From contig CAZHIA010000001.1 in the NCBI GenBank assembly GCA_964532425.1, forward strand, positions 201,481 through 265,480: a stretch of 64,000 bases of DNA, written 5' to 3'. This stretch comes from an uncultured Candidatus Saccharibacteria bacterium (GTDB taxonomy: Bacteria; Patescibacteriota; Doudnabacteria; UBA920). Made by a program: the position numbers and the translations under genes. Shown here piece by piece: positions 3,765 through 54,249 of the stretch. The number at the start of each line of letters is the position of its first letter. Position 1 is the stretch's first letter. The notes under the pieces are model-generated. The model ran no database searches and was not told the DNA's origin. It saw only the letters and a program-made list of their open reading frames with translations.

Positions 3765-4865
3765 ATGCCAAAACGATTTTTATTTTTTATAGCAATTGCC
3801 CAATTGCTTATTATTTTGTTCCACTGGTTATTTTACCAAGCGTTCCTGCTTTTGTTCCCGTCGTTGCAGCCTCATCACCTCGGGGTTGCGTGGGCACTGG
3901 GAGTGTTGTCGGTCAGCTTCTTGTATTTTTCGGTCGTTGATTTTAATTCTGAGAATATCGTGGCTCGGGTCGGTTATATTGTAGCCGCGGCTTGGATGCC
4001 CGTATTCTTTTATTTATTTTTAGCCTCCGTCCTCTCCCTCTGCATATACCTGTTTTCTCGCGAGGTGAGTCTGATAGCAGCCCCGATTTTGTACGCTGCT
4101 GCCGTGGTATTGTCTGTGTACGGATTGGTGAACGCGCGTATGATCCGGATCACGAAAGTCAGGGTGCCGCTGCCGAATCTGCCCGCCTACTGGCACGGCA
4201 AGACAGCCGTAATGCTGTCCGATCTGCACCTTGGCCATGTGCTGCGTGAGGGGTACGCGCGCAAACTGGTTGCCCGCGTCAACGCGCTGCACCCTGACAT
4301 CGTCTTCATCCCGGGAGATTTTTTTGACGGGGTTCATACGACATTCAAAGAGTTGGCGGAATTGTTTAAAGGCATCGCTGCGCCGCATGGCATCTATTAT
4401 GTCAGCGGTAATCACGAGCAGATCGCCGGCATGAGAGTTTGTGAGAATGCTTTGGAAGAGACCGGAATTCGGGTGCTCGACGATCAAAAGGTGGAGGTAG
4501 AGGGTCTGCAGATAGTCGGCACTGCGTATCATACGGGCGAAACTGCGGAGAGCTTGCGGCAGATTTTTTCTGCAATGGGAATTGCGCGGGAGAAGCCATC
4601 CGTGTACTTGAAACATATTCCCGACCATTTGGATGCGGCAGCTGACGCCGGCCTGGATTTGCAGCTGTCGGGACACACCCATTTGGGGCAGATTTGGCCA
4701 TTCCGTTTCGTAACCCGCCGCTTGTTCGGCCAATTCGATTATGGCCTGCATTATTTTAAAGACATGGCTGTGTATACCTCAAGCGGCGTCGGAACTTGGG
4801 GACCGCCGATGCGGGTCTTTACCCGCTCAGAGATAGTCTCACTCACATTTATCAACAGGTCATAA
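3765..4865 (+). CDS. membrane-anchored calcineurin-like metallophosphoesterase (YkuE-like)
   Basis: N-terminal TM helices followed by the motifs LSDLHLGH, GDFFDG, GNHE and GHTH. Confidence 0.85.
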   Translation: MPKRFLFFIAIAQLLIILFHWLFYQAFLLLFPSLQPHHLGVAWALGVLSVSFLYFSVVDFNSENIVARVGYIVAAAWMPVFFYLFLASVLSLCIYLFSREVSLIAAPILYAAAVVLSVYGLVNARMIRITKVRVPLPNLPAYWHGKTAVMLSDLHLGHVLREGYARKLVARVNALHPDIVFIPGDFFDGVHTTFKELAELFKGIAAPHGIYYVSGNHEQIAGMRVCENALEETGIRVLDDQKVEVEGLQIVGTAYHTGETAESLRQIFSAMGIAREKPSVYLKHIPDHLDAAADAGLDLQLSGHTHLGQIWPFRFVTRRLFGQFDYGLHYFKDMAVYTSSGVGTWGPPMRVFTRSEIVSLTFINRS

Positions 4866-5048
4866 TATATCGAAACTACGAATTCTGCCTCCGCCAGTTG
4901 GCGGATGGCAGGACGAATTTCCGAAGAACTACGAATGCAGGCATTAATAGATTCGATGTATTTAATCAGTTCAGCATTTATAAAATACCCATTCGGATGA
5001 ATGGGTATTAATTTTGGCTGGCTTTTCGGCATGGCCCTGTTTTGCGCA

Positions 5049-5366
5049 TTACGCAGCTGGAGGAAACTCTCTCCGGAGGCGTGATGGCAGTTTGGAGGCG
5101 CGCATGGCAGCGCGGATCGTTTCTCCGTCTGGCGTCAGACGCAGCTTGCCGCGGAGCAAGTTTCTGCGCGCCAGTTCAGGCTCAGGGTCTGCCGGGGGAT
5201 TCACCGCCGTGACAAGGCCGTGGTCGATCAGTTCTCCGAGGTACGAGATGAGCAGGGTACTGCTGAGTTCTTCGCCGCTTTCCTCTTCGATGCGCTCGAG
5301 CAGGCGAACGAGCGTCGTGTCGGCAGAGTGGGGGAAAAACGCAAGCAAGCGACGGGCATCGAGCAT
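5049..5366 (-). CDS. small hypothetical protein, possible wHTH regulator
   Basis: Good SD (AGGAGG, 9 nt from the ATG) and an extended -10 (TGgTATACT) upstream, with a palindrome at the promoter. Weak helix-turn-helix-like pattern. Confidence 0.45.
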   Translation of the reverse strand: MLDARRLLAFFPHSADTTLVRLLERIEEESGEELSSTLLISYLGELIDHGLVTAVNPPADPEPELARRNLLRGKLRLTPDGETIRAAMRASKLPSRLRREFPPAA

Positions 5367-5440
5367 ACTATAGAAACCTCCTGTGTGTACTACCCATAGT
5401 ATACCATTTTTATGGTTGGCGGTTTATCTACATTAAACAC

Positions 5441-5476
5441 ACTGTCCAACCAAACACAGGACAGTGTGTTTTTTGT
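5441..5476. promoter_or_regulatory. palindrome ACACACTGTCC-N13-GGACAGTGTGT at the promoter of 5049..5366 (operator or plus-strand terminator)
   Basis: Perfect 11-bp arms followed by a T-run on the plus strand. It overlaps the -35 region of the minus-strand gene. Confidence 0.55.
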
Positions 5477-5799
5477 AGCGTTAGCTACCCTGCGGACGGC
5501 CGCCGCCATGGGAGGCCCGGCCTCCAGCCTGGGCTACACGGCGCCTCGTTTCTTTGTCAGCCGAGGCGAGTCCGCGCTTGCTTTTTCCACGTGCCATAGT
5601 CTCCACCCCCTTCCTGAGCTCTGTTACCTAAGCTGAGCCGTATAACAGAATTAGTGCTTAAGTTACTGGATATTTTTTGCTCCGAATATGTAATATCGCA
5701 TATGAATCGATTAGTGAAGTCAACCGGCTGCAAAGCCGTATATAATAGCTAACGGCAGAAGCTCGCAATGGTTACAAGTATTCGATAATTAAAATCCCT

Positions 5800-5825
5800 C
5801 ACGCAAGAGGGATTTTTTGGTGAAA
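5800..5825. terminator. bidirectional terminator after the SdpI-like gene
   Basis: aaaatccctcacgcaagagggatttttt. Confidence 0.8.
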
Positions 5826-5840
5826 GACAGCAGCTGCGAT

Positions 5841-6491
5841 TTACGCTTTGGGAATCTTCCGGTAAATAAAGTATGAGTATGCGGTGGTTGCCAGGGCAAA
5901 GGCCAGCACGGCACCCATGGTGAGCAGGAAAGCGGCTTTACCCGGAATAAGCGGAGCTGCTAGCATGAGCAGGCCGCAGGCTACCATCAGATACCCACCC
6001 ATCCGGTGTGTCTTGTTCCAGACATCCTCCGATGACATAGTCCACGGCGTGCGGATGCCGATAAACCAGTTCCGTTTGATCTTACCCATAGAGTTCCCGA
6101 GAATAATGAACAGCAGGCCAATGAGCAGCGGGGTAAGGGTGGCAATGTTTACAGAAAAGCCTAGATTGTACATGCCGCTTGCAATAAAGAGCAGGAGTAA
6201 CATGCCCAGAATTGCAGCTTTGAATACATGATAGACGGACGCGAAGCTTTCATACCGCTGCCGTCGCGGGTCCACAAGAGGGAGGAGCAGGAACAATGCG
6301 TACATGCCGGACAGCAGCGCTGGCAGGAAGAATGCGCCACCTGCGCGGCCCATGTACCCATTCACGCGTCCGTTGGCATCCCAGTGCGTTGCCACCAGCG
6401 CGGGGAAGTGGCGGTAGAAGTAAAAACCGAGCGCCCAGGCAGCTGCCAGCAGCAGCAGGGGAAGCCATTCTGTTTTAAGCGAAAATTTCAT
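5841..6491 (-). CDS. SdpI/YhfL-family membrane protein (DUF1648 + SdpI domain)
   Basis: Six predicted TM helices and a conserved GIRTPWTMSSEDVWNKTH motif typical of the SdpI family. It lies in an operon arrangement with the ArsR gene. Confidence 0.7.
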   Translation of the reverse strand: MKFSLKTEWLPLLLLAAAWALGFYFYRHFPALVATHWDANGRVNGYMGRAGGAFFLPALLSGMYALFLLLPLVDPRRQRYESFASVYHVFKAAILGMLLLLFIASGMYNLGFSVNIATLTPLLIGLLFIILGNSMGKIKRNWFIGIRTPWTMSSEDVWNKTHRMGGYLMVACGLLMLAAPLIPGKAAFLLTMGAVLAFALATTAYSYFIYRKIPKA

Positions 6492-6506
6492 AGTTGTGCC
6501 TTTGAA

Positions 6507-6779
6507 TTATTTTTTAGGATGGATGAATTTTAATATCTGTTCTGCCAGTTCTTCCAACACGCTCAGATTGAGCGAATAAAGAATCTGTTGCCCTCGCCTT
6601 CTTCCGGAAACCAGGCCGGCCCGTTTGAGGATGTCCAGGTGGTGTGACAGGGTTGGCATGGTGACAGGCAAATGCCGGGCAATTTCCGAAACAGCCATCT
6701 CTTTCTTCTTGAGCAGGTCAAGGACTGTTCGGCGGTTCGGATCGGAAAGCGCGGCAAAGGTTTCTGACAGTGGAGCCAT
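6507..6779 (-). CDS. ArsR/SmtB-family transcriptional regulator (SdpR-like)
   Basis: HTH with ELxVxELA....Q.TVSHHL-like pattern (MAVSEIARHLPVTMPTLSHHLDILKRAGLV). It sits directly upstream of the SdpI-like gene. Confidence 0.85.
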   Translation of the reverse strand: MAPLSETFAALSDPNRRTVLDLLKKKEMAVSEIARHLPVTMPTLSHHLDILKRAGLVSGRRRGQQILYSLNLSVLEELAEQILKFIHPKK

Positions 6780-7854: not shown

Positions 7855-8008
7855 CCGCCAGTCTTTCCATATACGGCTGCGGCCCCGGCAACTTTCAGAT
7901 TCGGTATCGTACTTTACTCCCGGCGTTTTATCTGCGAGTAGCTGGGGTAATACTGCCAATGTTTGTACGTCTACATACGTGTGCAGTAAGAAATCCTATA
8001 CAACACAC

Positions 8009-8275
8009 ATGCCAACATTGACTGATCATGAGCGGATACGCGCATGGGCCCAGGAGCGGGATGCTCATCCTGCCATAGTCGAGGGAACCGAATCGGCCAA
8101 AGGCGAAGGCGTATTGAGATTCGATTTCGGCGACCCGAATGACAACCTTCGCCGTATCGACTGGGATGAGTTTTTCCAAATTTTTGATGAGCATGGCCTG
8201 ACTCTGCTCTATGATGAGGATGCAGAAAGCCGGTTCCATAAGTTCGTCTATCCGGAGCATGCGCACCGTGCATAA
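8009..8275 (+). CDS. small conserved hypothetical protein
   Basis: Internal ATG (MPTLTDHERIRAW...) of the 7808..8275 frame. Compact acidic domain with a WDEFF motif. Confidence 0.5.
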   Translation: MPTLTDHERIRAWAQERDAHPAIVEGTESAKGEGVLRFDFGDPNDNLRRIDWDEFFQIFDEHGLTLLYDEDAESRFHKFVYPEHAHRA

Positions 8276-8362
8276 TGAGCAGGAATTGTTCCAGCCTTCC
8301 CTTGAAGGCTGGTTTGTCTTTAGAGAGGAACATGAGTCAATGCAGGATAAACAGGAGGAACT

Positions 8363-9340
8363 ATGACAAGATTTTCCATGGGAGCGGTGGAGTGGTTTCC
8401 TTTTGAGGACCGCACACATGTCGCTACCGTTCTCGATCTCATAAAAGAGGCCGGAATTCCCAGCCTGAGGACATGTATTTCCTGGGCCGATGCTACCCGC
8501 GCAGGCGCGGACCGCTGGTTCGATTTTCTTTTGAACGAATTGGACCGGGCTGATATCGAGGTTATCCCGAACTTCTTTTACACGCCGCCGAGCCTGGCGC
8601 GCACCGCGCCGGATATGCCGGAAGGGAAAACTTCCTTTCCACCAAAGCGGCTTGAGGCCTACGCGGATTTTGTCGGATCGGTTATCGAGCGGCATGGCCA
8701 CCGGTTCGAATGGGTCATGCTCTGGAACGAGCCGGATAACGATGCATACTGGAATTGGAAACTTGACCCTGACAAACGGTTGTTCGCACAAATGTTCAAT
8801 TGCGCCGCCGACCGTGCTGTTGCGCTTGGTAAACGCGTTGTCCTTTCGGCCTGGGGCATTAAGGACGCCCAATGGCTCCAGCTCATGCACCGGCACGGCT
8901 GCCTGCAGCGTTCGCAGGCCGTGGGCGTGCATTGTTTCCCCGGTACCTGGGAGGACATCTGGTACGATTGGCCTGCGGCCTTGGGTACGTTTCGGGCAAT
9001 CCTTAAAGGACTCGGCTCGCCTGCTCAACTGTGGGCTACAGAAATCGGTTTCAGCACATGGGGAAGCGACGGCGATCGTCAGGCGCGCGAGAACGAACAG
9101 GTTCGGGTCTTTGACGAAGCCAACCGCGCGCTGGCCGAGGGGTTGGCTGACCGCATGTATTGGTATTCGGTCATGGACCAGCATATGGACACATTGACCG
9201 ACAATGCCTTAAACCAGGAAGGGAAGACTGCCGACATTAAGGCTTACCACTTCGGATTGGTAGAACGTTCCGGCCGCCGTAAACCGCTGTTTCTCCATTG
9301 GAAAGACTTAAATACACGGCTGGCAGACAAAGCTGCATAA
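8363..9340 (+). CDS. glycoside hydrolase, clan GH-A TIM barrel (GH5/GH39-like)
   Basis: LWNEPD motif (acid/base Glu in NEP) and ATEIGF motif (nucleophile Glu), as in GH-A retaining glycosidases. Confidence 0.65.
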   Translation: MTRFSMGAVEWFPFEDRTHVATVLDLIKEAGIPSLRTCISWADATRAGADRWFDFLLNELDRADIEVIPNFFYTPPSLARTAPDMPEGKTSFPPKRLEAYADFVGSVIERHGHRFEWVMLWNEPDNDAYWNWKLDPDKRLFAQMFNCAADRAVALGKRVVLSAWGIKDAQWLQLMHRHGCLQRSQAVGVHCFPGTWEDIWYDWPAALGTFRAILKGLGSPAQLWATEIGFSTWGSDGDRQARENEQVRVFDEANRALAEGLADRMYWYSVMDQHMDTLTDNALNQEGKTADIKAYHFGLVERSGRRKPLFLHWKDLNTRLADKAA

Positions 9341-9488
9341 GTCAATAATACCGCCTCGATGCACATCGAGGCGGTCTTTTATGATGAGAGGTTTGACTTG
9401 AGCTTTGAGCTCAAGCGTTTCTCGGCCATACGAGTCAAAACCCCGGCTGTACAGCCGGGGTTTTGGTCTTGTGTACTCGTGATCAGTA

Positions 9489-11348
9489 TTATGAGCTTGT
9501 CATACTGGAAGTTGTGCCGAGGAAGTTGAACAGCGCCTGCAGCGTGTTGCGTGTCAGCGGGATCGCAACCCAGCCGGGTGCAAGCGAGGCATGGTTCATC
9601 ATTCCCATCATGTCCATGCCGCCGCCCATTGGCATATTGCCGGGCATGCCCATATTCATTCCGCCGGGCAAGAGGGGCGACCCGCCGGAGCAATTCTGGC
9701 CGATATGGTGCGCAGGGTCAGTATCGTTCGGGTTGGTCGTGTGGTGTGCGGGATCATTGTCGACATTGCCGGAACAGTCAATGTAGTTGCCGTTCATCAT
9801 GGGGTAGCCGTTCGAATATGTGTACGGCGAACCCGGCTGCGTGGAAGTGGATGTCCCTCCGCCAGTTCCCCAGGGAATCGTGCTTGAGCTAAATACGTTG
9901 GGGTACATGGTAAGGAAGCTGCTCGGGACCAGAATCCAGCCGAAGACCTGGTTGCTGCCGATAGATCCGGGTGTGCTGGTGCCGGTGCCGCCTGATTGAG
10001 TGGCAGGCAGGGTTGTGGCTGTCGTGGTGGCGGATTGCGGCGAAGTGTTGCCGTTCTGATCATTTGCGGTAACAAAGTAACTGTACGTTGTCCCCGGATT
10101 CAAGCCGGTGTCCGTAAATGATACGGTCTGCGGACTGCTCGTACTGCCGGAGCTGGTCGAAGCGGCGGTCGTGCTGCCAATTTCCGCGCTGTTGCGGAAC
10201 ACGCGGAATACTACGTTGGCCGGGGTGGTGGAGTCAGTGCTGAAATTCCAAGTCAGGGTAATGGTGGTCGGTGAGGTTGACGAAGCCGCCAAGTTAACCG
10301 GGGTGGGAAGCGTGCTTGTGCCGGTCGTACTTGTCGCTGTGCTACCGCCGGTTGAGGAAGCCATGGGTGTTATAGATACGGTATATGTTTGCACTGACAT
10401 ATTTCCTGCCGGATCCGACGCAGTCAAAGCGTATGAAAATGCCGAGCTGCTTGCAGTGGTGGATGCCGGCGGGGTATCCGTATAGGTAGTCGCTCCCGGC
10501 GAAGTGGTTGCGAGGTGGCTGCCATCGCGGGAGACGTGGTAGCTGAGGTCAGTGGAAGTGTTGTCTGGATCGGTCGAAGCAGTCCAGTTCAAAACTACTT
10601 GTGACGGTACGGTAGACGTAGCCCAAAAGCCGGTCGGTGCTGTCGGAGCCGTGGTGTCCAGAGTGCTCGATGAGGTCGAAGTGTTATTAGTTGCTGGGGT
10701 GTTACTTGTCGTATTGCCGGTTGTCGCTGCCGCGGTTACTGTCACAATCCCTGTCATACCAATACCGCTCTGCGTGCCGTGGTAGCGGCAATAGTATTGG
10801 TAAGTTCCAGCGGTCGGAAATGCATGACTGTACGAGCCGCCGGGCTGGATGTTGCCGCTGTCGAATGAACTATCATTCGCCGTAACGGTGTGTGTGTTCT
10901 GTCCCTGGTTGGTCCAGGTTACGGTAGTTCCTTCAGGTACCGTGATGTCCGCCGGGTTGAAGGTATTGTCAGTGATAGTCACTGTTGACTGCTGGGTGCC
11001 CGTCGCTGTCGTGCTCGTCGTCGTGCTTGAAGCAGTTCCGGTTCCTGCTTCATTGTTGGCCGTCGTGCTTCCAGAGGTGGAGCTGGTGGTCGACTGTTGC
11101 GTGCTCGAGCCGGTGCTGTTCCCGGTATCCGCAGTCGAAGTTGCGGTGCCGGTCAAATTTGAAGCATTGCCAGTGCCGGTAGTGCTTTCCGTTGTGGTGG
11201 TTGCCGTAGATTGCTGCGTGCTGGTCGACGTATCGCCCGAGGTCGTAGTTTGGGCAAACGCATTCGGACCTGCGGTAAGCATCATGAGCGCTGCCAGACC
11301 GGCAAAGCTACCGATTCGCATCAAGCGGTGCATAAGATCTCCTTTCAA
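9489..11348 (-). CDS. secreted multi-domain protein: cupredoxin (type-1 Cu) domain + fibronectin-III repeats + His/Met-rich C-terminal metal-binding tail
   Basis: Signal peptide present. Cupredoxin signature: H...YYCRYHGTQSGIGMTG (Cys-His-Met ligands). FN3-like LNWTAS.. repeats. C-terminal PAHH repeats and GGMNMGMPGNMPMGGGMDMMGMM Met-rich motif. Confidence 0.75.
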   Translation of the reverse strand: MKGDLMHRLMRIGSFAGLAALMMLTAGPNAFAQTTTSGDTSTSTQQSTATTTTESTTGTGNASNLTGTATSTADTGNSTGSSTQQSTTSSTSGSTTANNEAGTGTASSTTTSTTATGTQQSTVTITDNTFNPADITVPEGTTVTWTNQGQNTHTVTANDSSFDSGNIQPGGSYSHAFPTAGTYQYYCRYHGTQSGIGMTGIVTVTAAATTGNTTSNTPATNNTSTSSSTLDTTAPTAPTGFWATSTVPSQVVLNWTASTDPDNTSTDLSYHVSRDGSHLATTSPGATTYTDTPPASTTASSSAFSYALTASDPAGNMSVQTYTVSITPMASSTGGSTATSTTGTSTLPTPVNLAASSTSPTTITLTWNFSTDSTTPANVVFRVFRNSAEIGSTTAASTSSGSTSSPQTVSFTDTGLNPGTTYSYFVTANDQNGNTSPQSATTTATTLPATQSGGTGTSTPGSIGSNQVFGWILVPSSFLTMYPNVFSSSTIPWGTGGGTSTSTQPGSPYTYSNGYPMMNGNYIDCSGNVDNDPAHHTTNPNDTDPAHHIGQNCSGGSPLLPGGMNMGMPGNMPMGGGMDMMGMMNHASLAPGWVAIPLTRNTLQALFNFLGTTSSMTSS

Positions 11349-11530
11349 AATTAATGGTTAAAAAGAGTCTTCCGATGAAGGTACTATTTTTGACGTATTT
11401 TGCCATGCATATAATGGCTATGGTCTTGTTCATCAAGAGTATTTATAAATACCTTTTATCTTCGGTCTTTTTGGGAAGCGGTGCTTGGGAAAGAAAAACA
11501 CCCTCGGAATGAGGGTGTTAAAAAATTTCG

Positions 11531-12436
11531 TCAGTAGACTGCGGTCTGCGGTGCGGCCTGTGTCGGCACCGCGGCAGCAAGGATATTTTTTGCGTAATTG
11601 ATCGGTATGGAGAAGCTTACGTTCCGATAATTCGAGGCAATGGCGTCATTGATGCCGACAACTTTTCCATTTGTATCGAATGTCGGTCCGCCCGAATGTC
11701 CCGGGTAGAGCTGCATGCTGCTTTGGAATAAATCCTGCAAATGCTGTCCGGGAGTGTCGGCGTTGCTCGGTACAATCTCCTCATGGAGCGATGACACTGT
11801 TCCGCCCGACGTAAAGTTGCTGAACTGGCCAAATGCATTTCCCATGCCCAAAACGGTCTGGCCGACGCGGAGCCCGGCGGAATCTCCCAGTTCTACGGTC
11901 GGATAATTGCTGCCTGGAATTTTCATGACTGCAATATCCTGCTGGGCATCCCGGTATACGACTTCCGCGTCATGAGTGGAGCCGTCCGCTAAGACTACCT
12001 GGTAGGTGGCGCTTGGGTCGGATACGACATGTGCGCAAGTCAGTAGATAGCCGTCCGACCTGACCAGGAAGCCGCTGCCGGCGTCCACTTCCATTTCGCC
12101 GGTGTTAGGCACTGAAATGGTCAGGTTAAAGAAAGGCAGAGTGAATATCGTGGCGTCAGGGGAGGGGGTAGCGGTCTTGTACCCGTAAATAGAGACTACG
12201 GCGGGGGAGATTTTTCCGATCGCTGCCTGCGCCTGGGTGCTGTCAGTCAAGGCTCCACTGGTCGCGGCCGCCAGTGTTGCGCGGCTGTCTGAGGGTCGTC
12301 CGGACAAAGTCCAGGAACCCTGAGCGCCGTTCATGCGGCGGCCGAGCTGCAGGGCGTGGCTTTGCACGAAGGAAGGTGCGGAAGCGACTGCGAGCGCCAG
12401 TAGAAAAATGGCGATAAATTTTCTTGGTGTAATCAT
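11531..12436 (-). CDS. trypsin-like serine protease (S1/HtrA-like, no PDZ)
   Basis: Signal peptide. Catalytic-triad motifs TCAHVV (His) and GHSGGP (Ser). Confidence 0.8.
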   Translation of the reverse strand: MITPRKFIAIFLLALAVASAPSFVQSHALQLGRRMNGAQGSWTLSGRPSDSRATLAAATSGALTDSTQAQAAIGKISPAVVSIYGYKTATPSPDATIFTLPFFNLTISVPNTGEMEVDAGSGFLVRSDGYLLTCAHVVSDPSATYQVVLADGSTHDAEVVYRDAQQDIAVMKIPGSNYPTVELGDSAGLRVGQTVLGMGNAFGQFSNFTSGGTVSSLHEEIVPSNADTPGQHLQDLFQSSMQLYPGHSGGPTFDTNGKVVGINDAIASNYRNVSFSIPINYAKNILAAAVPTQAAPQTAVY

Positions 12437-17330: not shown

Positions 17331-19559
17331 ATGGATCCGAACAGGAAGATTACGACCCAGGTATACCGCAGTTTTTTTGAGCAGCTCACCGATGCATTCC
17401 CGGCTCTGCTCGTCGTTTTTAACTTGCAGACAGGAAAATTCGTGTTTGCGAACAGGAGTCTCGAGCAACTGACGGGGTATTCTTTTAAAGATCTGGAAGA
17501 CGGCGGTTTGATGCGGGCAACCTCCTTATTACATCAAGATGAATTGGGGCTATTAACGGAAAAATTCCAACAAGGGCTGGCCGGGTTGCAGGAGTCCGGC
17601 GGGACTGAGGGTGCTTTTTTGGATCTCGAACACCGGTTGCGGCGGAAACAGGGTTCATGGGCGCGGCTCAGGACACAAGCTACCATATTCACGCGCGATG
17701 CCCAGGGCCGGCCGGAGCTGGTCCTGTTGTTTTCAGTCAGCTGCGCAGCGCGCAAGAAAAGGGCTGTGGCGCCCGGAGCGGCGAGCGAAGAAGCGATTGA
17801 ATCCAAGGTTCGTGACCGCACTGGGGCTTTGCTGGCTGCCCAGCAGAAGGTGATCAATGACCTGAAAAACATCCAGTACGCCCTGGACCAGTCTTCCATC
17901 GTAGCTATTACCGACAAGAACGGGGTCATCCAGTTTGTTAACGATAAATTCACGGAAATTTCCAAATACTCCCGCCAGGAACTCCTCGGGAAAACCCACC
18001 GGATCATCAATTCCCGCTATCATTCAAAAGAATTTTTTAAAGATCTGTGGGATACGATCCTGTCCGGCAGGGTTTGGCGGGGAGAACTGAAAAATCGCGC
18101 CAAAGACGGGACGTACTACTGGGTGGATACGACCATTACGCCGCTGCTTGACGAGCAAGGCAAGCCGAACCAGTTCATTGCCATTCGTAATGATATTACC
18201 GAGCGGAAGCATGCCGAAGATATCGTGCGGTACCAGGCACAGCATGATGCCCTGACCGCCTTGCCGAATCGCAAGGCGCTGGAAGACAGGCTGGCGCTGA
18301 CCCTGGCTTCTGCCGGGATTGTCCAACGGCCGGTTGGATTGGTCTTTTTGGATTTGGACCGGTTCAAGAACGTTAATGATTCGCTCGGTCACAGCATCGG
18401 TGACATGGTTCTCAAGGAGGTCGCAAATCGTCTGCAGGTCGCCGTTCAGGGGGATGACTTGGTCGCCCGCCTGGGTGGTGATGAATTTGTCCTCCTGCTT
18501 ACTCATCCGCTGGGCCTGGATGAAGTGACAAATACAGCGCAAAAAGTCCTCACTCACGTCGCTGTACCGATGAAGATCGGCAAATATCATTTGCACGTGA
18601 CCGCGAGCGCAGGCGTGGCTATGTATCCCGAAGACGGCCAGGACCAGCAGACGCTCATGAAGAATGCCGACTCGGCCCTCTACCGGGCAAAAAAGGCGGG
18701 CAGGAACTGCTACCGTCTGTTCAATAAGGAAGAGAATGCCCAAGCTTCGGCTCGGTTTATTCTCGGCAATGATTTGCGGCAAGCACTCGGGTCTGACCAA
18801 TTGGAACTGCATTACCAGCCGGTGGTCGACACGGAAAGTGGCCAAACAATAGCAACGGAAGCTCTGGTCCGCTGGAACCATCCGGATCTTGGGCTGGTCT
18901 ATCCCGGCGAGTTTATTCCCATTGCCGAAGAGCAGGGGTTGATCGTCGAGCTTGGCGAATGGGTCATGCGCAACGCCTGCCGGCAAATGAAAGAATGGCG
19001 CGCCCAAGGCATGCCGCCCTTTCGAATTTCCATCAACCTTTCCGCACCGCAATTTTCCGATGCGCAGCTGATACCGCTGGTCAGCGATATCCTGCAGGAA
19101 TCAGGCCTGACCGGAGAGCACTTGGAGCTGGAGATCACGGAAAGCGTGGCTGTAGAGAATTTTGACCGGACCAGGCAAAAGCTGCAAGACCTTCGCGATA
19201 TGGGCATTCATCTGACCATGGATGATTTTGGGACCGGGTATTCGTCGCTCAACTATCTGCGGCGTTTTCCGCTGCAGAAGCTCAAGATCGACCGGTCGTT
19301 CGTCCGCCACAGCATCGTCAGTCAACAGGATTCCAGCATCATCCAGGCCATTATCGCTATTGCCAACAATTTGGGACTGAAGATCGTTGCCGAAGGGGTG
19401 GAAACCATGGAACAGTATGAGCTACTCTTAAAATTGGGCTGCTTCCGTATGCAGGGGTATTTGATTAGCAAGCCGCTGCCGGCTCTGGATTTTGCCGCCT
19501 GGGTGAACAATGGCAGCAGTTGGCCGTCGGTTAAACTCTCGCCGCGCCGCCGGATTTGA
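17331..19559 (+). CDS. PAS/PAC-PAS-GGDEF-EAL c-di-GMP signalling protein
   Basis: Two PAS-like segments, GGDEF motif (RLGGDEF), EAL motif with ELEITES and the Mg-binding DDFGTGYSS. Confidence 0.9.
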
Positions 19560-19955: not shown

Positions 19956-22514
19956 TTGATTCATACTTGTATGGAAACAGAAACTTCCACAATTGAAGAA
20001 GGACAACCCGGACAGGAGCCATTCGAAGGCCGCTGGTCGGAAACCGGCGAGAGCCAGATCGATCACCTGCTCTTACAGGTTGATTTGCATGAGCTTTCCG
20101 ATCCGGGGTCGCTCGAAGCTGCTGAACTGTCTCTGTATCCCGAGAATGATGATGAGGGGTTGGGGATGTTGCCGGAGACGGAAGGCGAAGCCGAATTTCA
20201 GGAAAAGTTCGGTTCACTTCCCGAACTCGTTGCCGCTCTGGGTCCGCAGCAGGTTGGTTGGGAAAAAGTCGCAGCCAGTTCCGGTGGCGATGTCTTAAAA
20301 CGCGACGGGCACGAGTGGGTGTTCCGGGACAAAGATGGGCAAGAGACGTCCGTGACGCAGGCAGTGCAGGGTACGGCAATAGAAGCTCGTCATGCCGGCA
20401 TTCTGGAACAGTTGTATAACCAGGGGTTTGCCGTTTCTGAATTTGAGCGCGACCGCGAGACATTGGTGCGGGAAGTGTATTTTGCCGATGAAAAAGGCCG
20501 TATCAGTTTTGAAGTCTATGCCTTCAACAAAGAACAGGATGGATTTGAATTAGATGCAGAGAGAGAACTTGGAGAGGAGAGTGTGGCCAGCAGTGCGGAG
20601 CCGGCACTTCCGGACTCTACTGCTATTGACGATTTGGAAATTGAACCGCAACAACTGACCGTGCAACAGGGGGAAGTTCTATTCGAAACAGCCGTATTAG
20701 GAACAGATATGGAAGCGGAAAGTTCGGACAGTGAACTTTCCGCGGTTGCACTGGAGCTGGATGAAGCCGGAGTTGCGCCCGAATTTTTTGATGATGGAGT
20801 TGTTGAGATCAAAACTGAAGATTTGACCCAGGTCGAACCGGCTGCCGAAGAGATGGCTGTGGATGCGCCTCCGGAAAAGTATGCGGTTTTGCCGAGCAGT
20901 GTTCCGCTGAAAGAGACAGTGATGCAAGCGGCCATGAATGTCGCCGTTGATGGACAGGCTGTCCGGACAGTGGCGGAACATGTATTGCCCATAGAATCCA
21001 TAGGAGTGATGGAAGCAATTTCTTTTGAAGCGCAAGGGATTGGAATTCAGGAACCTGAAATTGAAGCTCACCAGGTCCCGGCAGAGAGTGAGAAGCCAGT
21101 CACTGAATCCGCCGACAGAAAACAAGAGGGTGCAGTGCCGTTTATGGGAATACCGGATGCGATAGTTGTGCGGCAAGAAATAGCTCCGACAGCGGAAGAG
21201 ACAGTACAGGCATTAGGTAATTCAGCCATTGAAACAAGCCGCACGTCCGAAGTACAGCCCAGAGCCGTGCAGCAGAACGCTCCCACTATCGAACTGGCAA
21301 TTATGCCAGAAGTTTTCAGGACTGAGGCACCCGTTCAGGATATCCTGGCGACTGAATCCGCTACCGCAGATATCGAATCGTTGCTGGTGTCGCCAGTGGT
21401 TGCCGAGACGGTTCAAGCGGTTTTGCCTTCGGAAGCGAGCAGCGGGATTGAACTCGACACTGAGTATTGGATTGATTCAGAAACGGACACAGTGAGTATT
21501 GAAACCGGCCCTATGCTCCGGCAAGAAAGAGCTGAGTTTACTGAAGGTACACCAACCGTTGCCCCGGTAGAAATCGGCGGTGAGAAGCCCGCAGAAGGAT
21601 TATTTGAATTTGGAAGTAAACCGGAAATTGTAGAGACGACAGTACAGGAAGATTCTCACGCCAGCCAGGCTATTGAAATCGCTGCCGTATCCGAAGAAGA
21701 GTCCGAGATTCAAATCCAGGAGGATCTCGAACCCGCTCAGGAGTCTAAGCCGCGTCAGATTCAGGCTGTGCCGGAAAGGGTTTACTATGAATTTGCAACT
21801 CTGGAATCATTAGGTATAGCCGTGCAGGACGGTGAAGAAGCACAGGACCGGAGTATGCCTGAAATTTTACTTAAAGGCAGTTTCAAATCAGAACAGCGCG
21901 AGCCGGAGGAGGGGCTTGTGGCCGAATTAGAGGATGCCTCGGTTCGGTACACCAAGACAGTAACCGTCGAAGTGCCAGAGAGGTCTCCCCAGCAGCGGTC
22001 TGGCGAACCTCACCAAACCAGCGCAATAAGTGAATCCCGTAAATCCTCCAATGAGGTATCCACGGAGAAGCTTGGTATTTCGCTCGAAACGGAAGTTGTT
22101 GTAACTGGACAGGAGAGCGCAGTTCTTGTCGCTGAAGAAGATGTTTGGGAAGATCCGCGGGTCGAAACCGGGCAACCTGCGGTTCGGATAGCGGACATGG
22201 GGAGGCTGGAAACGGAGTTCAAAACACCAGCCGCAGTCGAGCCACAACCTATAATGAAGGCCACCCTGCTTCAGGATGGAGCAGAAACCTCCCGTTTTGC
22301 AACGCAGCTTGGTATTGAGTTGAACGAGTCCGTATCCGATGTACGGCAATCCGAATTCGCCAGTCAGCAGCAGCCGGCCTTACGAACCGTTTCGCGGACA
22401 GAAACGCTCGGTAGTGCGGTTCAGGCAGCCCGTCCGGTCTTGGACGCGGATGATTACGAGATGCAAGTGCCGCCAAATTTGCCGCGAGGGAAACGTTTGC
22501 AATTTGCAACATAA
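19956..22514 (+). CDS. very acidic low-complexity protein (Glu/Asp/Ala/Val-rich), unknown function
   Basis: 852-aa ORF. An N-terminal roughly 180-aa globular region is followed by about 650 aa of degenerate acidic repeats. It is co-directional with and 40 bp upstream of the ClpB-like gene. Confidence 0.6.
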   Translation: MIHTCMETETSTIEEGQPGQEPFEGRWSETGESQIDHLLLQVDLHELSDPGSLEAAELSLYPENDDEGLGMLPETEGEAEFQEKFGSLPELVAALGPQQVGWEKVAASSGGDVLKRDGHEWVFRDKDGQETSVTQAVQGTAIEARHAGILEQLYNQGFAVSEFERDRETLVREVYFADEKGRISFEVYAFNKEQDGFELDAERELGEESVASSAEPALPDSTAIDDLEIEPQQLTVQQGEVLFETAVLGTDMEAESSDSELSAVALELDEAGVAPEFFDDGVVEIKTEDLTQVEPAAEEMAVDAPPEKYAVLPSSVPLKETVMQAAMNVAVDGQAVRTVAEHVLPIESIGVMEAISFEAQGIGIQEPEIEAHQVPAESEKPVTESADRKQEGAVPFMGIPDAIVVRQEIAPTAEETVQALGNSAIETSRTSEVQPRAVQQNAPTIELAIMPEVFRTEAPVQDILATESATADIESLLVSPVVAETVQAVLPSEASSGIELDTEYWIDSETDTVSIETGPMLRQERAEFTEGTPTVAPVEIGGEKPAEGLFEFGSKPEIVETTVQEDSHASQAIEIAAVSEEESEIQIQEDLEPAQESKPRQIQAVPERVYYEFATLESLGIAVQDGEEAQDRSMPEILLKGSFKSEQREPEEGLVAELEDASVRYTKTVTVEVPERSPQQRSGEPHQTSAISESRKSSNEVSTEKLGISLETEVVVTGQESAVLVAEEDVWEDPRVETGQPAVRIADMGRLETEFKTPAAVEPQPIMKATLLQDGAETSRFATQLGIELNESVSDVRQSEFASQQQPALRTVSRTETLGSAVQAARPVLDADDYEMQVPPNLPRGKRLQFAT

Positions 22515-22554: not shown

Positions 22555-24243
22555 TTGAATATAACAATTGAGGTAGTCCGTATGGTCGATTTTAACAAAA
22601 TTTCATATTACGACCTGAAGCTGGAAGCAATGAAGGGCAGGCTTGCGGCTGTTGTGGGTAGACGCGATGAGTTCTCTCGAATCTCGCGTGTCATTGCGCG
22701 TCATATTCATAATAACTGCATTTTGGTCGGGAATAGCGGCGTGGGCAAGACTGCGCTTATTCACGGGTGGGCTCAATCGACACTGTTGGATGAAAACCGC
22801 TCCATGCTTCCTATTGTGCAGCTTGAAGCGGAAAGTTTTGCGTCTTTCGGTTCGGCGGGGACCATCCCACTGCAGCGTTATAAGGAGGCGTTCGAATCCC
22901 TGCCCCCCTGTGTGTTGGTTATCGACGATTTTGGGGGGATCGTTTACAATAAACCGTCAGCCGTGCATACGATGCTCCAGCTGCTCAGACCGGTGGCGGA
23001 GAGTGGCCAGGTGCAGCTTATGCTCGTCATGGAAACCAAAGAACATAAATGGTTGGAGAACGAGCAGCCGAATTTTTTGAATTTTTTTGAGACCATTCCG
23101 GTCAAGGAACAATCGCATGCTGAGCAGTTGGAAATTTTAAAAAATTCTCAGGAGTGGTTCCGCAGCAAGCAGGCCGCGGGCGCGGATGATGTTTTGCTCG
23201 AACTTATTCTGCAGCTGGTGCAGCGGTTTGCCATGCTCGGGCAATTACCGGCTTCGGCTGTGAAGATTTTGGATGAAGTTCTGGCGCTTGCCCAGGCAGA
23301 AGGAAGAATGCAGGCCGCTGAATCCGACGTGTACCGGGTCGTTTCGGACAAAGCCGGTATCCCGCTGTCGCAGCTGCAAGTTTCGGAAAAAGAACAGCTT
23401 AAGAATTTGGAGCGCAATTTGAATTCCCGGATCATTGGGCAGCCGGCCGCGCTGAGTCGGATCGCCTCGACGATCAAGCGTGCCAAACTGGGTTTAAAAA
23501 ATCCGGGACGTCCGCTGGGTTCGTTTCTGGTGCTCGGCCCATCCGGCGTTGGTAAAACCGAGACGGCAAAATTCTTGGCCGAGACCGTATTCGGAAAGTC
23601 CGACAGTTTCATCCGTATCGACATGTCCGAATTCGGGCAGGAGCACACGGTGGCCCGGCTGATCGGCTCTCCCGCCGGCTATGTGGGGTTCGATGCGGGC
23701 GGCGGCCTCACCAATGCGGTCAAGCAGGAGCCGTACAGCTTGGTGCTGCTCGACGAGATCGAAAAAGCACACCCGAAGATTTTTGATATATTTTTGCAGA
23801 TCCTGGACGACGGCCGCTTGACCAGCGGGCAGGGTGAGACCATCGATTTCACCCAGACTATTGTCATGGCCACTTCGAATATGGGTGTGGAAGAGATTAT
23901 CAGGGGCCACGAGACGGGAGAAGATGTACATAGCGACTCGTTCTTCCAACAGCGGCTTGTGCCAGTGCTCTCGAAATCTTTCCGCCTGGAATTTTTAAAC
24001 CGATTTGACGCGGTGCTGGTATTCAAGCCGCTGACCGAACCTGATCTGTTGGAGATCGCCAAACTGGAAATTAAGAAGGTTGAGGCTCGCGTGTCCCGGC
24101 ACAACATCAAGTTCAAGATTGACCCTTCCGTACTTGTCAGGCAGATCAGAAACCTTGCAGATCCGCGTTTTGGCGCCCGCCCGGTCAAGCGGTTCGTAGA
24201 GACGACGTGCGAAGATTTGATTAGTAAAAAATTGTTACAATAG
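22555..24243 (+). CDS. truncated Clp/Hsp100-family AAA+ ATPase (degenerate D1 + canonical ClpB-type D2)
   Basis: D1 has Walker A GNSGVGKTA but an aberrant Walker B (VLVIDDFGG). D2 has IIGQ...LGPSGVGKTE, Walker B LLDEIEKAH, sensor/arginine-finger context and a C-terminal small domain. It is only 562 aa and lacks the N-domain and long M-domain. Confidence 0.8.
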   Translation: MNITIEVVRMVDFNKISYYDLKLEAMKGRLAAVVGRRDEFSRISRVIARHIHNNCILVGNSGVGKTALIHGWAQSTLLDENRSMLPIVQLEAESFASFGSAGTIPLQRYKEAFESLPPCVLVIDDFGGIVYNKPSAVHTMLQLLRPVAESGQVQLMLVMETKEHKWLENEQPNFLNFFETIPVKEQSHAEQLEILKNSQEWFRSKQAAGADDVLLELILQLVQRFAMLGQLPASAVKILDEVLALAQAEGRMQAAESDVYRVVSDKAGIPLSQLQVSEKEQLKNLERNLNSRIIGQPAALSRIASTIKRAKLGLKNPGRPLGSFLVLGPSGVGKTETAKFLAETVFGKSDSFIRIDMSEFGQEHTVARLIGSPAGYVGFDAGGGLTNAVKQEPYSLVLLDEIEKAHPKIFDIFLQILDDGRLTSGQGETIDFTQTIVMATSNMGVEEIIRGHETGEDVHSDSFFQQRLVPVLSKSFRLEFLNRFDAVLVFKPLTEPDLLEIAKLEIKKVEARVSRHNIKFKIDPSVLVRQIRNLADPRFGARPVKRFVETTCEDLISKKLLQ

Positions 24244-24874: not shown

Positions 24875-26158
24875 ATGCCTACGTCTTCTATTATTCTTGG
24901 TGAAAACATTTACCGCAATGTGCATCGGCCAATCGTGTTCCAGGACCATGACCGGCTGCGCCATACGTACATGCTCGGCAAGACCGGAGTGGGGAAGTCC
25001 ACGGTCTTTCAGAATATGTGCTTGCAGGACATCCGCAACCGGCACGGCGCCTGTTTTATTGACCCGCACGGCGAATCTATTGCTTGGCTGCTGGAACGTA
25101 TCCCAGAAAACCGCCTGGAAGATGTCATTCTGTTTGAACCTGCGGACGAGGACTGCTCATTCGGGCTTAACCTGCTTGAGGCCAGCAGCGAGCGCGAGAA
25201 AGATTTTTTGGTCTCCCAGGTCATTGAAATTTTTTACAAGCTATTCGATCCCGGACGAACCGGCATTATCGGCCCGCAATTCGAACACTGGCTGCGCTGC
25301 GCTGCGCTGACGGTCATGGCGGGCCCGGAAGGCGGGAGTTTAATAGAGATCCCCCGGCTGTTCATTGATAAGGGGTTTGAAGCCAAAAAACGCAAGTACC
25401 TCAAAGACCCGGTGGTCCTGGATTTTTGGACCAAACAAATGGCCGGCACTTCGGATTTCCACAAGTCAGAAATGCTCAACTACTTCACCTCAAAGTTCGG
25501 CCATTTCATGAACAATTCGCAGATGCGCAACATTATCGGCCAGCGCGTTTCATCATTCAATTTTGACGAGGTACTGCGCCAGGAAAAGATTCTACTGGTC
25601 GATCTATCCAAGGGCAAGATTGGAGACATGAATGCGCAAATGCTCGGGCTCATTTTGGTAGCCAAGTTGCAGGGGGCGGTGCTCAGGCGTGCCGCCGTAC
25701 CGGAGCAGGAACGATACCCGTTCTACCTGTATGTCGACGAATTCCAGAATCTGGTCACAGACACGTTCGCGTCCATGCTGTCCGAGTCGCGCAAGTACGG
25801 CCTCGGGGTGCATTTAACCAACCAGTACTTCGCGCAGCTGCCGCCGGCTATGCAAAATGCCGTGCTGGGCAACGTCGGCACGCTGCTGGCGTTTGAAGTG
25901 GGCGTGGAAGATGCACAAATCTTAAGCCGCGAATTTGCCCCTATCGACAAGGAAGACTTTATAAACCTGCCGCGCTTCTCGTTTTATATCAAGCTGATGA
26001 TTGATGGCAAGACAAGTGAGGCATTTTCCGGAACCAGTCTGCCGCCGGACAGCAAGGTCATGGCAGGCAACGGCGATCGTATTCGTCAGATCAACCGTCT
26101 AGCTTATGCCGTCCCGCGCCTTCTCGCTGAGGAGCTGGTGAAGAGTTATATGAGATAG
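24875..26158 (+). CDS. TraD/VirD4/TrwB-like P-loop ATPase domain protein (T4SS coupling-protein-like, no TM anchor)
   Basis: Walker A GKTGVGKST and Walker B YLYVDEFQNL, followed by the SESRKYGLGVHLTNQ motif typical of the FtsK/TraD/HerA clade. Confidence 0.55.
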   Translation: MPTSSIILGENIYRNVHRPIVFQDHDRLRHTYMLGKTGVGKSTVFQNMCLQDIRNRHGACFIDPHGESIAWLLERIPENRLEDVILFEPADEDCSFGLNLLEASSEREKDFLVSQVIEIFYKLFDPGRTGIIGPQFEHWLRCAALTVMAGPEGGSLIEIPRLFIDKGFEAKKRKYLKDPVVLDFWTKQMAGTSDFHKSEMLNYFTSKFGHFMNNSQMRNIIGQRVSSFNFDEVLRQEKILLVDLSKGKIGDMNAQMLGLILVAKLQGAVLRRAAVPEQERYPFYLYVDEFQNLVTDTFASMLSESRKYGLGVHLTNQYFAQLPPAMQNAVLGNVGTLLAFEVGVEDAQILSREFAPIDKEDFINLPRFSFYIKLMIDGKTSEAFSGTSLPPDSKVMAGNGDRIRQINRLAYAVPRLLAEELVKSYMR

Positions 26159-47137: not shown

Positions 47138-47526
47138 TGGTGGAGATGCCGGGAGTTAAACCCGGGTCCAAAACGTATCGATCTTCCCATTATTCACAAG
47201 ATTAGTCGGTTATTGTACCTCTATGATATCCAACCGACAACGAATCATAAAGGCTGATATACAAGTCTTGTTCCCGGCAGGTATATCGGCCACCGGGCTA
47301 GCAACCTCTAATGAACCCACTAACCCCGAGCGGAGGTGCGCGCGGGAGTGAGGTAACAACCTAAAGTTAGGCCATTACAGGTGCGAGGTCGGCGTTTTGA
47401 AACGCGGCCACTACCTTTTGCCAGGAATTGGCATTTGTTGGTTGATCGCAGGATTTTCGAGGTCAGCAATCGTGCTCGTCTTGCATATGAAAAGATGTCA
47501 AAGTTCTGTCAAAAACCGTCATCCCC
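47138..47526 (-). ncRNA. ssrA: tmRNA (SsrA), one-piece
   Basis: On the minus strand the 5' end is GGGGAUGACGG and the 3' end is GGACCCGGGUUUAACUCCCGGCAUCUCCACCA. The 7-bp acceptor stem has a G3-U pair (alanine identity). A T-arm with a 7-nt loop is followed by ACCA. An internal tag-like frame follows a UAGUG context, analogous to E. coli UAGUC-GCA: GCC GCG UUU CAA AAC GCC GAC CUC GCA CCU GUA AUG GCC UAA (AAFQNADLAPVMA*). Confidence 0.7.
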
Positions 47527-50657: not shown

Positions 50658-50812
50658 AAACCATTCGAAAACCGCTAGCCCTCCGCCAGCGGTTATATGT
50701 AAAAGAGGAACTGACACCTTGTTTGTTTATTAGAATATAGTACCGGAGGCTTCTGCTGGTGAATACATAGTCCTTTGTAGAATATCAAAATTTACAAAGA
50801 TTATCTTTGTGT

Positions 50813-53498: not shown

Positions 53499-53585
53499 AG
53501 TTTACCGAATGCGTGGTACTAGAGGCTTTGAATTTGGCAAACTATTTTGCTCTAAATAAGGCATTTTTGGGCAAATAATATCAAT

Positions 53586-54245: not shown

Positions 54246-54249
54246 TTGT

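Follow-up and report, generated by a model that had tools for sequence, protein, structure and literature searches.

A secreted cupredoxin–FN3 protein of the Patescibacteria ends in an undescribed module with two DPAHH motifs, a possible tether for a blue-copper carrier

A 64,000-nucleotide stretch of contig CAZHIA010000001.1 (positions 201,481 to 265,480, forward strand; assembly GCA_964532425.1) from an uncultured Candidatus Saccharibacteria bacterium, placed by GTDB in Patescibacteriota, Doudnabacteria, UBA920, was analyzed, and this whole stretch is referred to as the window hereafter. Our subject is the gene at 9489..11333 (−), whose product combines one cupredoxin domain, two domains of the fibronectin type III (FN3) type and a C-terminal module. 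The new part of this protein is the C-terminal module, rather than the methionine cluster that lies within it: the module is undescribed, rare and restricted to the Candidate Phyla Radiation (CPR), and two DPAHH motifs form its invariant core. The copper domain is ordinary in kind. An earlier sequence-only reading of this DNA had linked the His- and Met-containing tail to copper handling by the cupredoxin protein. This view is not supported as it stands, since the DPAHH motifs belong to the center of a mini-domain in its own right, which is also carried by GH6 and GH113 enzymes, by FN3-only proteins and by bare linkers. The explanation that we favor, at a probability of roughly one half, is that the protein is a surface-tethered one-electron blue-copper carrier, in which the C-terminal module is the tether or targeting unit. 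Residue numbers refer to the 619-residue open reading frame (ORF), and subtracting 5 gives the numbering of the 614-residue protein; related proteins and loci are cited by P and L handles.

The module was first seen as the conserved last ~150 residues across P0003, P0005 and P0006, together with a tail-only match, P0121. A word-indexed homologue search with the tail alone yielded one new protein, and an exhaustive profile search was needed for the family. The profile, built from five members including the window protein, matched 35 proteins among 1.84 billion cluster representatives. The window protein (P0001) scored 227 bits (E = 5e-63) against this profile, which includes it, and independent members scored 130–180 bits. 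Judged by these scores, the window protein is a member of a DPAHH-core module family with the signature C.G..D.D..HH...D.D..H..G..C, flanked by GW...P and W..(I/V)PL elements. The family core consensus is Y.NGYP..NGNY.DC.GN(I/V)DND(P/M)(A/G)HHTTN..D.DP(A/G)H(H/N/R).G(Q/K/M)NC.GG, and the long form of the module continues through a variable loop of 27–48 residues to a 'W..(I/V)PL(T/N)' strand and an amphipathic helix. Twelve columns are invariant in 24 modules and 11 columns (two Cys, three His, four Asp and two Gly) in 31 cores; the window protein carries all of these 11–12 columns. The family members are all singleton clusters, labeled 'hypothetical' or without a name. Among the nine module or core loci that have an organism title (six distinct metagenome-assembled genomes, MAGs), all are from Patescibacteria or an unclassified 'bacterium' MAG, the titles being Doudnabacteria, Saccharibacteria, Kaiserbacteria, Patescibacteria and the unclassified 'bacterium' MAG.

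No family was found for the module by Pfam and NCBIfam on the full protein, by Pfam on six relatives, or by Pfam at E ≤ 10 on 31 cores, and neither PDB profile searches nor fold comparison of the module and core models gave a match. A DUF2946 match on P0122 (E = 4.9e-4) was dismissed: it is under the cut-off and lies over a Pro/Ala linker. The DPAHH motif in this sense occurs in no paper that we found.

In the window protein, the module spans residues 465–614 (9507..9956, −), as delimited by the alignment and the profile, and consists of a strand and helix, a Ser/Thr linker, the His/Asp core, the Met-rich loop, and a second strand and helix. The N-side 'GW...P' strand with its short helix (FGWILVPSSFLTMYPNVF) is located at 9891..9944 (−). 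The mini-domain core of ~45–51 residues (9678..9830, −) reads Y.NGYP..NGNY.DC.GN.DNDPAHHTTN..D.DPAHH.GQNC.GG, and the PAHH repeats of the sequence-only reading are confirmed in it as exactly two DPAHH motifs (residues 532–536 and 544–548; 9705-9755, −). The variable loop from the core to the last strand covers residues 554–592 (9573..9689, −), and the C-side 'W..IPLT' strand with its amphipathic helix (WVAIPLTRNTLQALFNFL), which is not transmembrane, lies at 9519..9572 (−). In the AlphaFold models made with the 24 modules, the predicted local distance difference test score (pLDDT) is ~86 for the strand and helix elements (~86 for the N-side and ~76–87 for the C-side element of the window protein), ~70–77 for the core and 40–48 for the variable loop. 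The core modeled alone is a three-stranded meander followed by loops, with a mean pLDDT of 70.

Two observations were made on the core itself. In the core alignment, the fourth His is replaced by Asn in 8 members, and all 8 have Lys for Gln three residues on (HN.GK versus HH.GQ); this covariation may mark either a structural contact or a subclade signature. In P0149 and P0151, short secreted proteins of unknown organisms, two tandem 'DNDPAHHST..D.DPAHH' units each are followed by 'C...C.(W/L)V(P/A)(V/I)(A/P)GFD(L/V)(A/N)GN', but the Y.NGYP meander is missing. A second, different context thus exists for the double DPAHH motif.

Based on what precedes or follows it, the module can be grouped into several arrangements. 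The long form stands after a cupredoxin with FN3 or Ig-like domains in seven proteins (the window protein, P0005, P0006, P0144, P0148, P0130 and L015), after FN3 only in ten (P0003, P0123, P0125, P0126, P0132, P0133, P0135, P0137, P0140 and L001), after a Ser/Thr linker only in five (P0121, P0129, P0131, P0138 and L002), and after an uncharacterized domain in P0127 and P0142. In GH6 enzymes (P0122, where it is present twice, P0143/L004 and P0150), the bare core directly follows the signal or anchor region at the N-terminus, and in GH113 enzymes with PA14 or CARDB (P0145, L003, L005, L006 and L014) it stands at the end; two core-bearing enzymes (L003 and L004) occur in one MAG. The fusion seen in the window protein is indeed uncommon, as had been claimed: in two collections of proteins (15 billion sequences) and two of contigs, the seven cupredoxin-bearing proteins were found with this architecture. 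Because the same core occurs on GH6, GH113 and FN3-only proteins and on bare linkers, the core, judged from these fusions, is a shuffled targeting, anchoring or binding module and no copper-specific partner. At locus L012 (8001-11098), P0003 (three FN3 domains and the module) is adjacent and convergent to the GH6 gene P0122 with two DPAHH cores, which is the sole hint of a functional link between core-bearing proteins.

These arrangements also bear on the idea that the core is a small carbohydrate binder resembling a carbohydrate-binding module (CBM). According to this idea, three conserved aromatics in the beta-meander (Y.NGYP..NGNY) would hold a sugar, a metal or disulfide would stabilize the fold, enzymes would be targeted to a beta-1,4-glycan, and the cupredoxin protein would be a polysaccharide-localized redox helper, comparable to the CBM-bearing redox proteins of oxidative cellulose degradation. 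The places occupied by the core are typical of CBMs: it stands after the signal or anchor of GH6 (P0122 twice, P0143 and P0150) or at the extreme C-terminus of GH113/PA14/CARDB proteins, with Ser/Thr- or Pro-rich linkers on its flanks. The aromatic positions are conserved, with G8, Y9 and P10 nearly invariant, AlphaFold places a three-stranded meander over these residues, and in L012 a GH6 gene adjoins an FN3-plus-module gene. However, the strictest conservation lies in His, Asp and Cys and not in the aromatics, the Tyr being changed to Trp, Phe or His in several members; no Pfam CBM family or solved fold was matched, none of the loci showed a lytic polysaccharide monooxygenase or another enzyme that attacks polysaccharides oxidatively, and many members have no enzyme domain. 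We consider this explanation improbable.

A broader explanation drawn from the same fusions is possible, at well under even odds: the core may be an undescribed, Patescibacteria-restricted surface-targeting or ligand-binding module, a counterpart in function to a dockerin, a CBM or a wall anchor, showing varied payloads (a blue-copper carrier, GH6 and GH113 enzymes, FN3 stalks) at one common site in episymbiotic ultra-small bacteria, with the Met/Trp loop of the long form adding a soft-metal or hydrophobic contact.

The Met cluster, MNMGMPGNMPMGGGMDMMGMM, occupies residues 564–584 (9597-9659, −) inside the variable loop. Met makes up 10 of its 21 residues, and five M-x-M and three M-x-x-M motifs can be counted in it, besides two MM pairs. 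Such a cluster is far beyond chance: when the protein was shuffled 20,000 times, the highest number of Met per 23-residue window had a mean of 3.4 and was at most 8. A recent DNA slippage repeat was rejected as its origin, with no tandem repeat lying under it. The Met content of the loop ranges from 0 to 26% across the 24 modules. The window protein has the highest value (26%), followed by P0129 (22%), P0136 (21%) and P0123 (18%), while P0006, P0144 and P0148 have 0%. For the six other cupredoxin-bearing relatives, the values are 11, 0, 6, 0, 0 and 15% (L015 having ~15%), and without a cupredoxin they reach 22%; the medians are 2.9% with and 8.8% without a cupredoxin (Mann–Whitney p = 0.23). 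When the 24 modules are pooled, Met accounts for 9.7% of the loop versus 2.7% elsewhere, a 3.5-fold enrichment and the highest of any residue, followed by Trp (2.8-fold). The Met positions are not aligned between members, and the three modules of the 24 that lack loop Met all belong to cupredoxin-bearing proteins. The Met bias is a soft family trait without fixed positions, and the Met cluster is a variable loop uncoupled from the cupredoxin. The sequence-only reading had named a Met-rich tail that is not conserved as grounds for refutation, and this applies in part: the Met tail is missing from P0006, P0144 and P0148. The models suggest that the Met loop is disordered, because its pLDDT is 40–48.

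The family-wide 3.5-fold enrichment nevertheless keeps a role in binding copper or another soft metal alive as a rival. In its full form, this rival would make the C-terminal module itself copper-binding: the HH pairs would take Cu(II)/Cu(I) and the Met/Trp loop Cu(I), so that surface copper would be captured, buffered or delivered, for instance for loading the tethered cupredoxin with metal or for Cu(I) detoxification, as in CueO Met-rich domains or laccase Met/His tails. The density of M-x-M, M-x-x-M and MM motifs in the window protein, the rank of Met and then Trp in the loops of the 24 modules, and the three invariant His and four invariant Asp beside the loop all speak for it. The module may resemble the Ctr1 ectodomain (HH and Met clusters) and CusF (a Met/His/Trp site). 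The rival is also helped by reports that CueO Met-rich domains are transient Cu(I)-recruiting elements (PMC11494321) and that Met/His-rich laccase C-termini bind Ag(I) and Cu (PMC12723717). Yet loop Met is unrelated to the presence of a cupredoxin, as the above medians indicate, it is zero in three cupredoxin-bearing relatives, and its positions do not line up between members. The His core is also carried by GH6 and GH113 enzymes, for which a need for copper is not evident and in which the loop is missing. No CopA, CopZ, CusF, CopC or CsoR genes are present in the 64-kb window or in the seven neighborhoods of relatives examined, and no Pfam copper-binding family was matched by the 31 cores even at E ≤ 10. 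The likeness of the Met motifs to those of CopA, PcoA and CusF, which had been pointed out in the sequence-only reading, was not backed by any matching family hidden Markov model (HMM) or fold. CusF, CopC/PcoC, PCuAC and CopK were rejected as candidates on the same searches (the full protein against Pfam and NCBIfam, the 31 cores against Pfam at E ≤ 10, PDB and fold comparison). To call the tail His-rich also goes too far: His occurs 11 times in the entire protein (1.8%), and the two HH pairs account for four of these residues. Taken as a whole, we regard a copper-binding module as rather unlikely.

The payload of the module in the window protein is the cupredoxin domain (residues 121–207; 10728..10988, −), delimited by Pfam/NCBIfam, PDB alignment and ligand comparison. 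Two Pfam matches over residues 111–204, PF13473 (Cupredoxin_1) with 46.6 bits (cut-off 27) and PF00127 (Copper-bind) with 33.2 bits (cut-off 21.2), assign it to the cupredoxin superfamily. The codons of the putative ligands are those of H153 (10890-10892), C187 (10788-10790), H190 (10779-10781) and M198 (10755-10757), all on the minus strand; the ligand loop has the form C-x2-H-x7-M, and the full set is His-Cys-His-Met. In the alignment with plastocyanin 1bxu, NTHTV corresponds to the His-containing strand (the His of 'HTVT'), and YYCRYHGTQSGIGM corresponds to YYCEPH---RGAGM. The type-1 (blue) ligand set is therefore complete in the sequence, and copper occupancy is predicted. Among solved structures, the best matches are an additional cupredoxin at the C-terminus of a copper nitrite reductase, NirK (9cck, E = 2.5e-17), the blue copper protein 5fc9, plastocyanins, amicyanins and pseudoazurins. 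Plastocyanin, amicyanin and halocyanin proper were rejected, as the scores are far under the equivalog or subfamily cut-offs of NCBIfam (41.3 vs 87.85 bits for TIGR02656, 23.9 vs 110.2 for TIGR02657 and 36 vs 93.8 for TIGR03102).

The loop HG.xGGxGMSG is also found in the CPR-type cupredoxin proteins P0005, P0037, P0046, P0144, P0148 and L015, and in a 365-residue paralogue at L007. Of nine CPR-type relatives, seven have kept the four ligands, as has L015, and within the seven proteins combining a cupredoxin with the module, all four are kept in five (the window protein and four of its six relatives). The 365-residue L007 protein (4811-5908, −, on the P0005 contig) is a second secreted cupredoxin with the same C-x2-H-x7-M loop. 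Its tail differs: four 'GNTYYDPYNNNL' repeats are followed by a Cys-containing end. This paralogue has another tail, and therefore the CPR cupredoxin is combined with several kinds of tail.

Returning to the tethered carrier, the following mechanism is proposed. After cleavage of the signal peptide, a long Ser/Thr-rich spacer would bear one cupredoxin of the plastocyanin/amicyanin type, and the two FN3 domains would form a stalk. The Cys-bounded core with its two D-x-D-P-A-H-H motifs is probably a knot that is stabilized by a divalent metal or binds metal, as suggested by the invariance of its His, Asp and Cys. Two strand and helix elements would clasp this core, with a floppy Met/Trp/Gly/Asn-rich loop between the core and the last strand. 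Since the same core is joined to GH6, GH113, FN3-only stalks and bare linkers, the module most likely targets or tethers any fused payload, with the cell surface or a shared ligand as the destination, in the manner of a dockerin, a CBM or a wall-binding module. The payload here would be a blue-copper one-electron carrier, and the result would be a surface-tethered electron shuttle. In related multi-cupredoxin proteins of other bacteria (P0004, P0007–P0009, P0011 and P0012), a terminal hydrophobic helix is located at the position of the module, and the module would replace this C-terminal membrane helix as the tether. We infer a tethered carrier because of this exchange of helix for module, and also because a cell without a periplasm would have to tether a soluble carrier to keep it. 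A further reason is a published proposal that, in Patescibacteria, cupredoxins of a single domain carry electrons to NirK (PMC12931201). Beyond that proposal of plastocyanin-like carriers for NirK, no literature on CPR cupredoxin–FN3 proteins was found.

Several points weigh against this explanation. The His-to-Met spacing in the ligand loop is 7 residues versus 3 in 1bxu, longer than in the aligned classical blue copper proteins. Neither NirK nor an oxidase, a cytochrome or another redox partner is encoded in the 64-kb window or in the seven related neighborhoods. Met and then Trp being the residues most enriched in the loop across the family has the look of a soft-metal site. The structural models are only moderately confident (mean pLDDT 64 and 70), and no known fold was matched. 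Finally, the Cys ligand is changed to Asp in P0006 and all four ligands are gone in P0130, with the rest of the architecture the same; because the copper site can be lost within this architecture, the cupredoxin domain may be partly structural. The sequence-only reading had made ligand conservation in homologues a touchstone, and the outcome is mixed: most CPR-type relatives pass, but these two do not. As to its view of a copper-handling or electron-transfer surface protein, the type-1 site is complete in sequence, but no copper-homeostasis or redox-partner gene lies in the 64-kb window or in the seven related neighborhoods.

The ligand losses also speak for another explanation, in which the protein is mainly a structural or adhesive surface fiber, the cupredoxin being a beta-sandwich spacer with leftover ligands and the Met cluster a product of neutral drift in a disordered loop. 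Such a fiber would fit the facts that most family members have only FN3 domains or linkers, that the composition is extreme, Thr making up 22% and Ser 14.5% of the residues against 1 Lys and 4 Glu, and that the loop is variable in length and sequence with a low pLDDT. On the other hand, the retention of all four ligands in five of the seven cupredoxin-bearing members, and in other-tailed paralogues such as the 365-residue L007 protein, points to selection on the copper site. Neutral drift is also a poor explanation for a Met enrichment that recurs 3.5-fold in distant members, and no DNA repeat lies beneath the cluster. We regard a fiber of this kind as quite unlikely.

The gene and the remaining parts of the protein are as follows. 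The ORF 9489..11348 (−) is present in the window and encodes 619 residues if counted from the TTG at 11348. The stretch 5′ of the ORF reads ...TTGAAAGGAGATCTTATG..., and a Shine–Dalgarno sequence, AGGAGA, can be read directly at 11338..11343 (−), between the TTG and the ATG at 11333. Because AGGAGA stands 4 nt before this ATG and the TTG lies upstream of AGGAGA, the true start is almost certainly the ATG at 11333; the most likely extent of the gene is then 9489..11333 (−; 614 codons and the stop), and the product has 614 residues. An identical 614-residue protein (P0001) is deposited in NCBI as a singleton, encoded on a contig of 334,850 bp. An exact look-up of P0001 on contigs gave no match, and the neighboring protease was found there only on short Logan contigs. 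Thr makes up 21.9% of the residues, Ser 14.5% and Gly 10.3%, and Lys occurs once and Glu four times, which is an extreme composition.

At the N-terminus, the pattern of n-, h- and c-regions points to a Sec-type signal peptide, MHRLMRIGSFAGLAALMMLTAGPNAFA (11250..11333, −), with a predicted cleavage after AFA and before QTTT. It is followed by a low-complexity spacer rich in Ser, Thr, Gly and Asn (residues 34–120; 10989..11249, −), the length of which differs among relatives. The protein is accordingly predicted to be Sec-exported, modular and extracellular, and the central claim of the sequence-only reading, a secreted modular cupredoxin–FN3 protein with a Cys-His-Met type-1 site, stands with the Pfam scores above their cut-offs and the four ligands aligned with 1bxu. 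The FN3-like repeats, described there as several, number only two. The first (residues 233–330; 10359..10652, −) is based on the NCBIfam CbhB region, self-comparison and the FN3 domains of relatives, and the second (residues 347–446; 10011..10310, −) on Pfam fn3, the CbhB region and self-comparison. The Pfam fn3 match (PF00041, residues 349–443) has 23.5 bits, just short of the cut-off of 25, while the match to the NCBIfam CbhB FN3 region covers residues 226–454. The two segments share 30% identity with each other (E = 1e-6), and clear fn3 matches are found in relatives. No NCBIfam sorting domain (LPXTG, PEP-CTERM, GlyGly-CTERM and similar) was matched at the C-terminus, and a transmembrane or sorting signal was rejected there, the end ...WVAIPLTRNTLQALFNFLGTTSSMTSS having no motif, hydrophobic span or basic tail.

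As for the genomic neighborhood, the gene at 11531-12436 (−) encodes a Trypsin_2 protease resembling HtrA/DegP; it lacks a PDZ domain, and its N-terminus looks like a signal. The secreted S1 protease of the sequence-only reading does adjoin the cupredoxin gene, but a terminator-like hairpin with a T-run (11497..11519, −) is seen in the gap between the two genes and suggests that they are separate transcription units. An operon with the protease was rejected on account of this hairpin and of the absence of the adjacency from L001, L002, L007–L009, L012 and L019. On the other side, a hairpin with a perfect 11-bp stem (9350..9375, strand-neutral) lies between the convergent genes 8363-9340 (+) and 9489-11333 (−) and is possibly a bidirectional terminator. 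The neighborhoods of the seven relatives have nothing in common with the window or with one another, and they hold housekeeping genes (TsaD, LeuRS, alanine racemase, Nramp, pyrimidine biosynthesis, DivIC and PPIase). A copper-resistance or denitrification context was rejected, as neither the window nor the related loci contain such genes.

Genes related to metals are represented in the window by an ArsR/SdpI pair and a CDF transporter. The pair (5841-6779, −) consists of an ArsR-family regulator (6507-6779) immediately upstream of an SdpI/DUF1648 membrane protein (5841-6491), and on sequence it resembles an SdpR/SdpI-like immunity and signaling pair. A 418-residue ORF (7928-9184, −), antisense to the Glyco_hydro_cc-like gene 8363-9340 (+), looks like a spurious shadow ORF. 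At 17331-19559 (+), a 742-residue PAS-PAS-GGDEF-EAL cyclic-di-GMP signaling protein is encoded, a kind of protein that is uncommon in reduced CPR genomes. An 852-residue ORF without a Pfam or PADLOC match (19956-22514, +) lies directly upstream of the gene for a 562-residue Clp-type AAA+ ATPase that lacks the usual N-terminal half (22555-24243, +), and the two could be a split or unusual Clp/ClpB arrangement. The named relatives of this ATPase are from Doudnabacteria (58% identity), then Falkowbacteria, Paceibacterota and Wolfebacteria, all of them Patescibacteria; together with the organism titles of the module loci, this assigns the window to a CPR bacterium. The 427-residue ATPase at 24875-26158 (+) resembles TrwB (a type IV coupling protein), HerA and mad8 (PADLOC mad8, E = 5e-13), which hints at a mobile element or a defense-associated gene. 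A transfer-messenger RNA gene (47138-47526, −; Rfam 124 bits) has an unusual tag peptide, ANSWQKVVAAFQNADLAPVMA. Finally, a low-GC island (50000-56000; GC 0.33–0.37 versus ~0.52 elsewhere) holds an 807-residue AAA_16/STAND-like ATPase (51075-53498) and several ORFs without a Pfam family; it was probably acquired horizontally. As PADLOC gave no match there, a defense system was rejected for this island.

CPR bacteria, or Patescibacteria, probably live on the cells of hosts, and respiratory chains are missing from most of them. How they anchor proteins on their surface, and why some of them export blue-copper proteins, are questions on which this locus bears. It joins a copper domain whose type-1 site is complete in sequence to a module that is rare, strongly conserved and also put on glycosidases by the same organisms. 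The 51-residue core, with its three His, four Asp and two Cys invariant, provides a testable handle on CPR surface display, and also on whether copper handling or electron transfer outside the cell takes place in these organisms. Should the module turn out to hold a metal or to act as an anchor, a new domain family would be merited; if not, the protein would be one more modular secreted cupredoxin.

When compared with known systems, the copper domain is closest to the plastocyanin-, amicyanin- and halocyanin-type blue copper proteins, including 9cck and Nitrosopumilus 5fc9: it shares with them a single Greek-key cupredoxin, an upstream His and a C-terminal Cys-x2-His...Met loop. Apart from the low subfamily scores and the longer His-to-Met spacing given above, the surroundings differ: those carriers are soluble proteins of ~100 residues, whereas the domain in the window is embedded in a 614-residue Ser/Thr-rich, FN3-containing secreted protein. 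The CueO Met-rich domain and the laccase tails of lactic acid bacteria (PMC11494321, PMC12723717) likewise combine a cupredoxin fold with a flexible, Met-rich M-x-M/MM segment that has His nearby. However, CueO and the laccases are three-domain oxidases with a trinuclear cluster and a Met segment at the type-1 (T1) entrance, while the window protein has a single cupredoxin, and its Met loop is ~365 residues from the T1 loop, in a separate module, with unconserved positions and no covariation with the cupredoxin. Membership in the multicopper oxidases of the CueO/CopA/PcoA type, which bear a Met-rich Cu(I) domain, was rejected because of the single cupredoxin, the distance of the Met cluster from the T1 loop and the want of a Cu-oxidase Pfam match.

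The core is similar in design to dockerins, small Cys-containing CBMs and calcium-binding D-x-D repeats (TSP3, Excalibur) in that it is small, duplicated (two D-x-D-P-A-H-H), rich in Asp and Asn, bounded by Cys and flanked by linkers. Like appended glycosidase modules, it occurs at either end of GH6 and GH113 enzymes and on non-enzymatic proteins. The resemblance is by design only: the core has invariant His pairs where calcium loops have acidic ligands, and no cohesin-like partner was identified. Membership in the dockerin, CBM, TSP3 or Excalibur families was rejected, with no described HMM or solved fold matched. The last comparison is with the C-terminally membrane-anchored multi-cupredoxins (P0004, P0007–P0009, P0011 and P0012). 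These have the same 'HTVTA.D.SFDSG ... Y.C..H' subtype of cupredoxin, with 45–51% domain identity, and they too are exported and held at the surface. They differ in their build: 4–6 tandem cupredoxins, Pro-rich linkers and a terminal helix are found in them, whereas the window protein has one cupredoxin, the FN3 domains and the His/Asp-core module.

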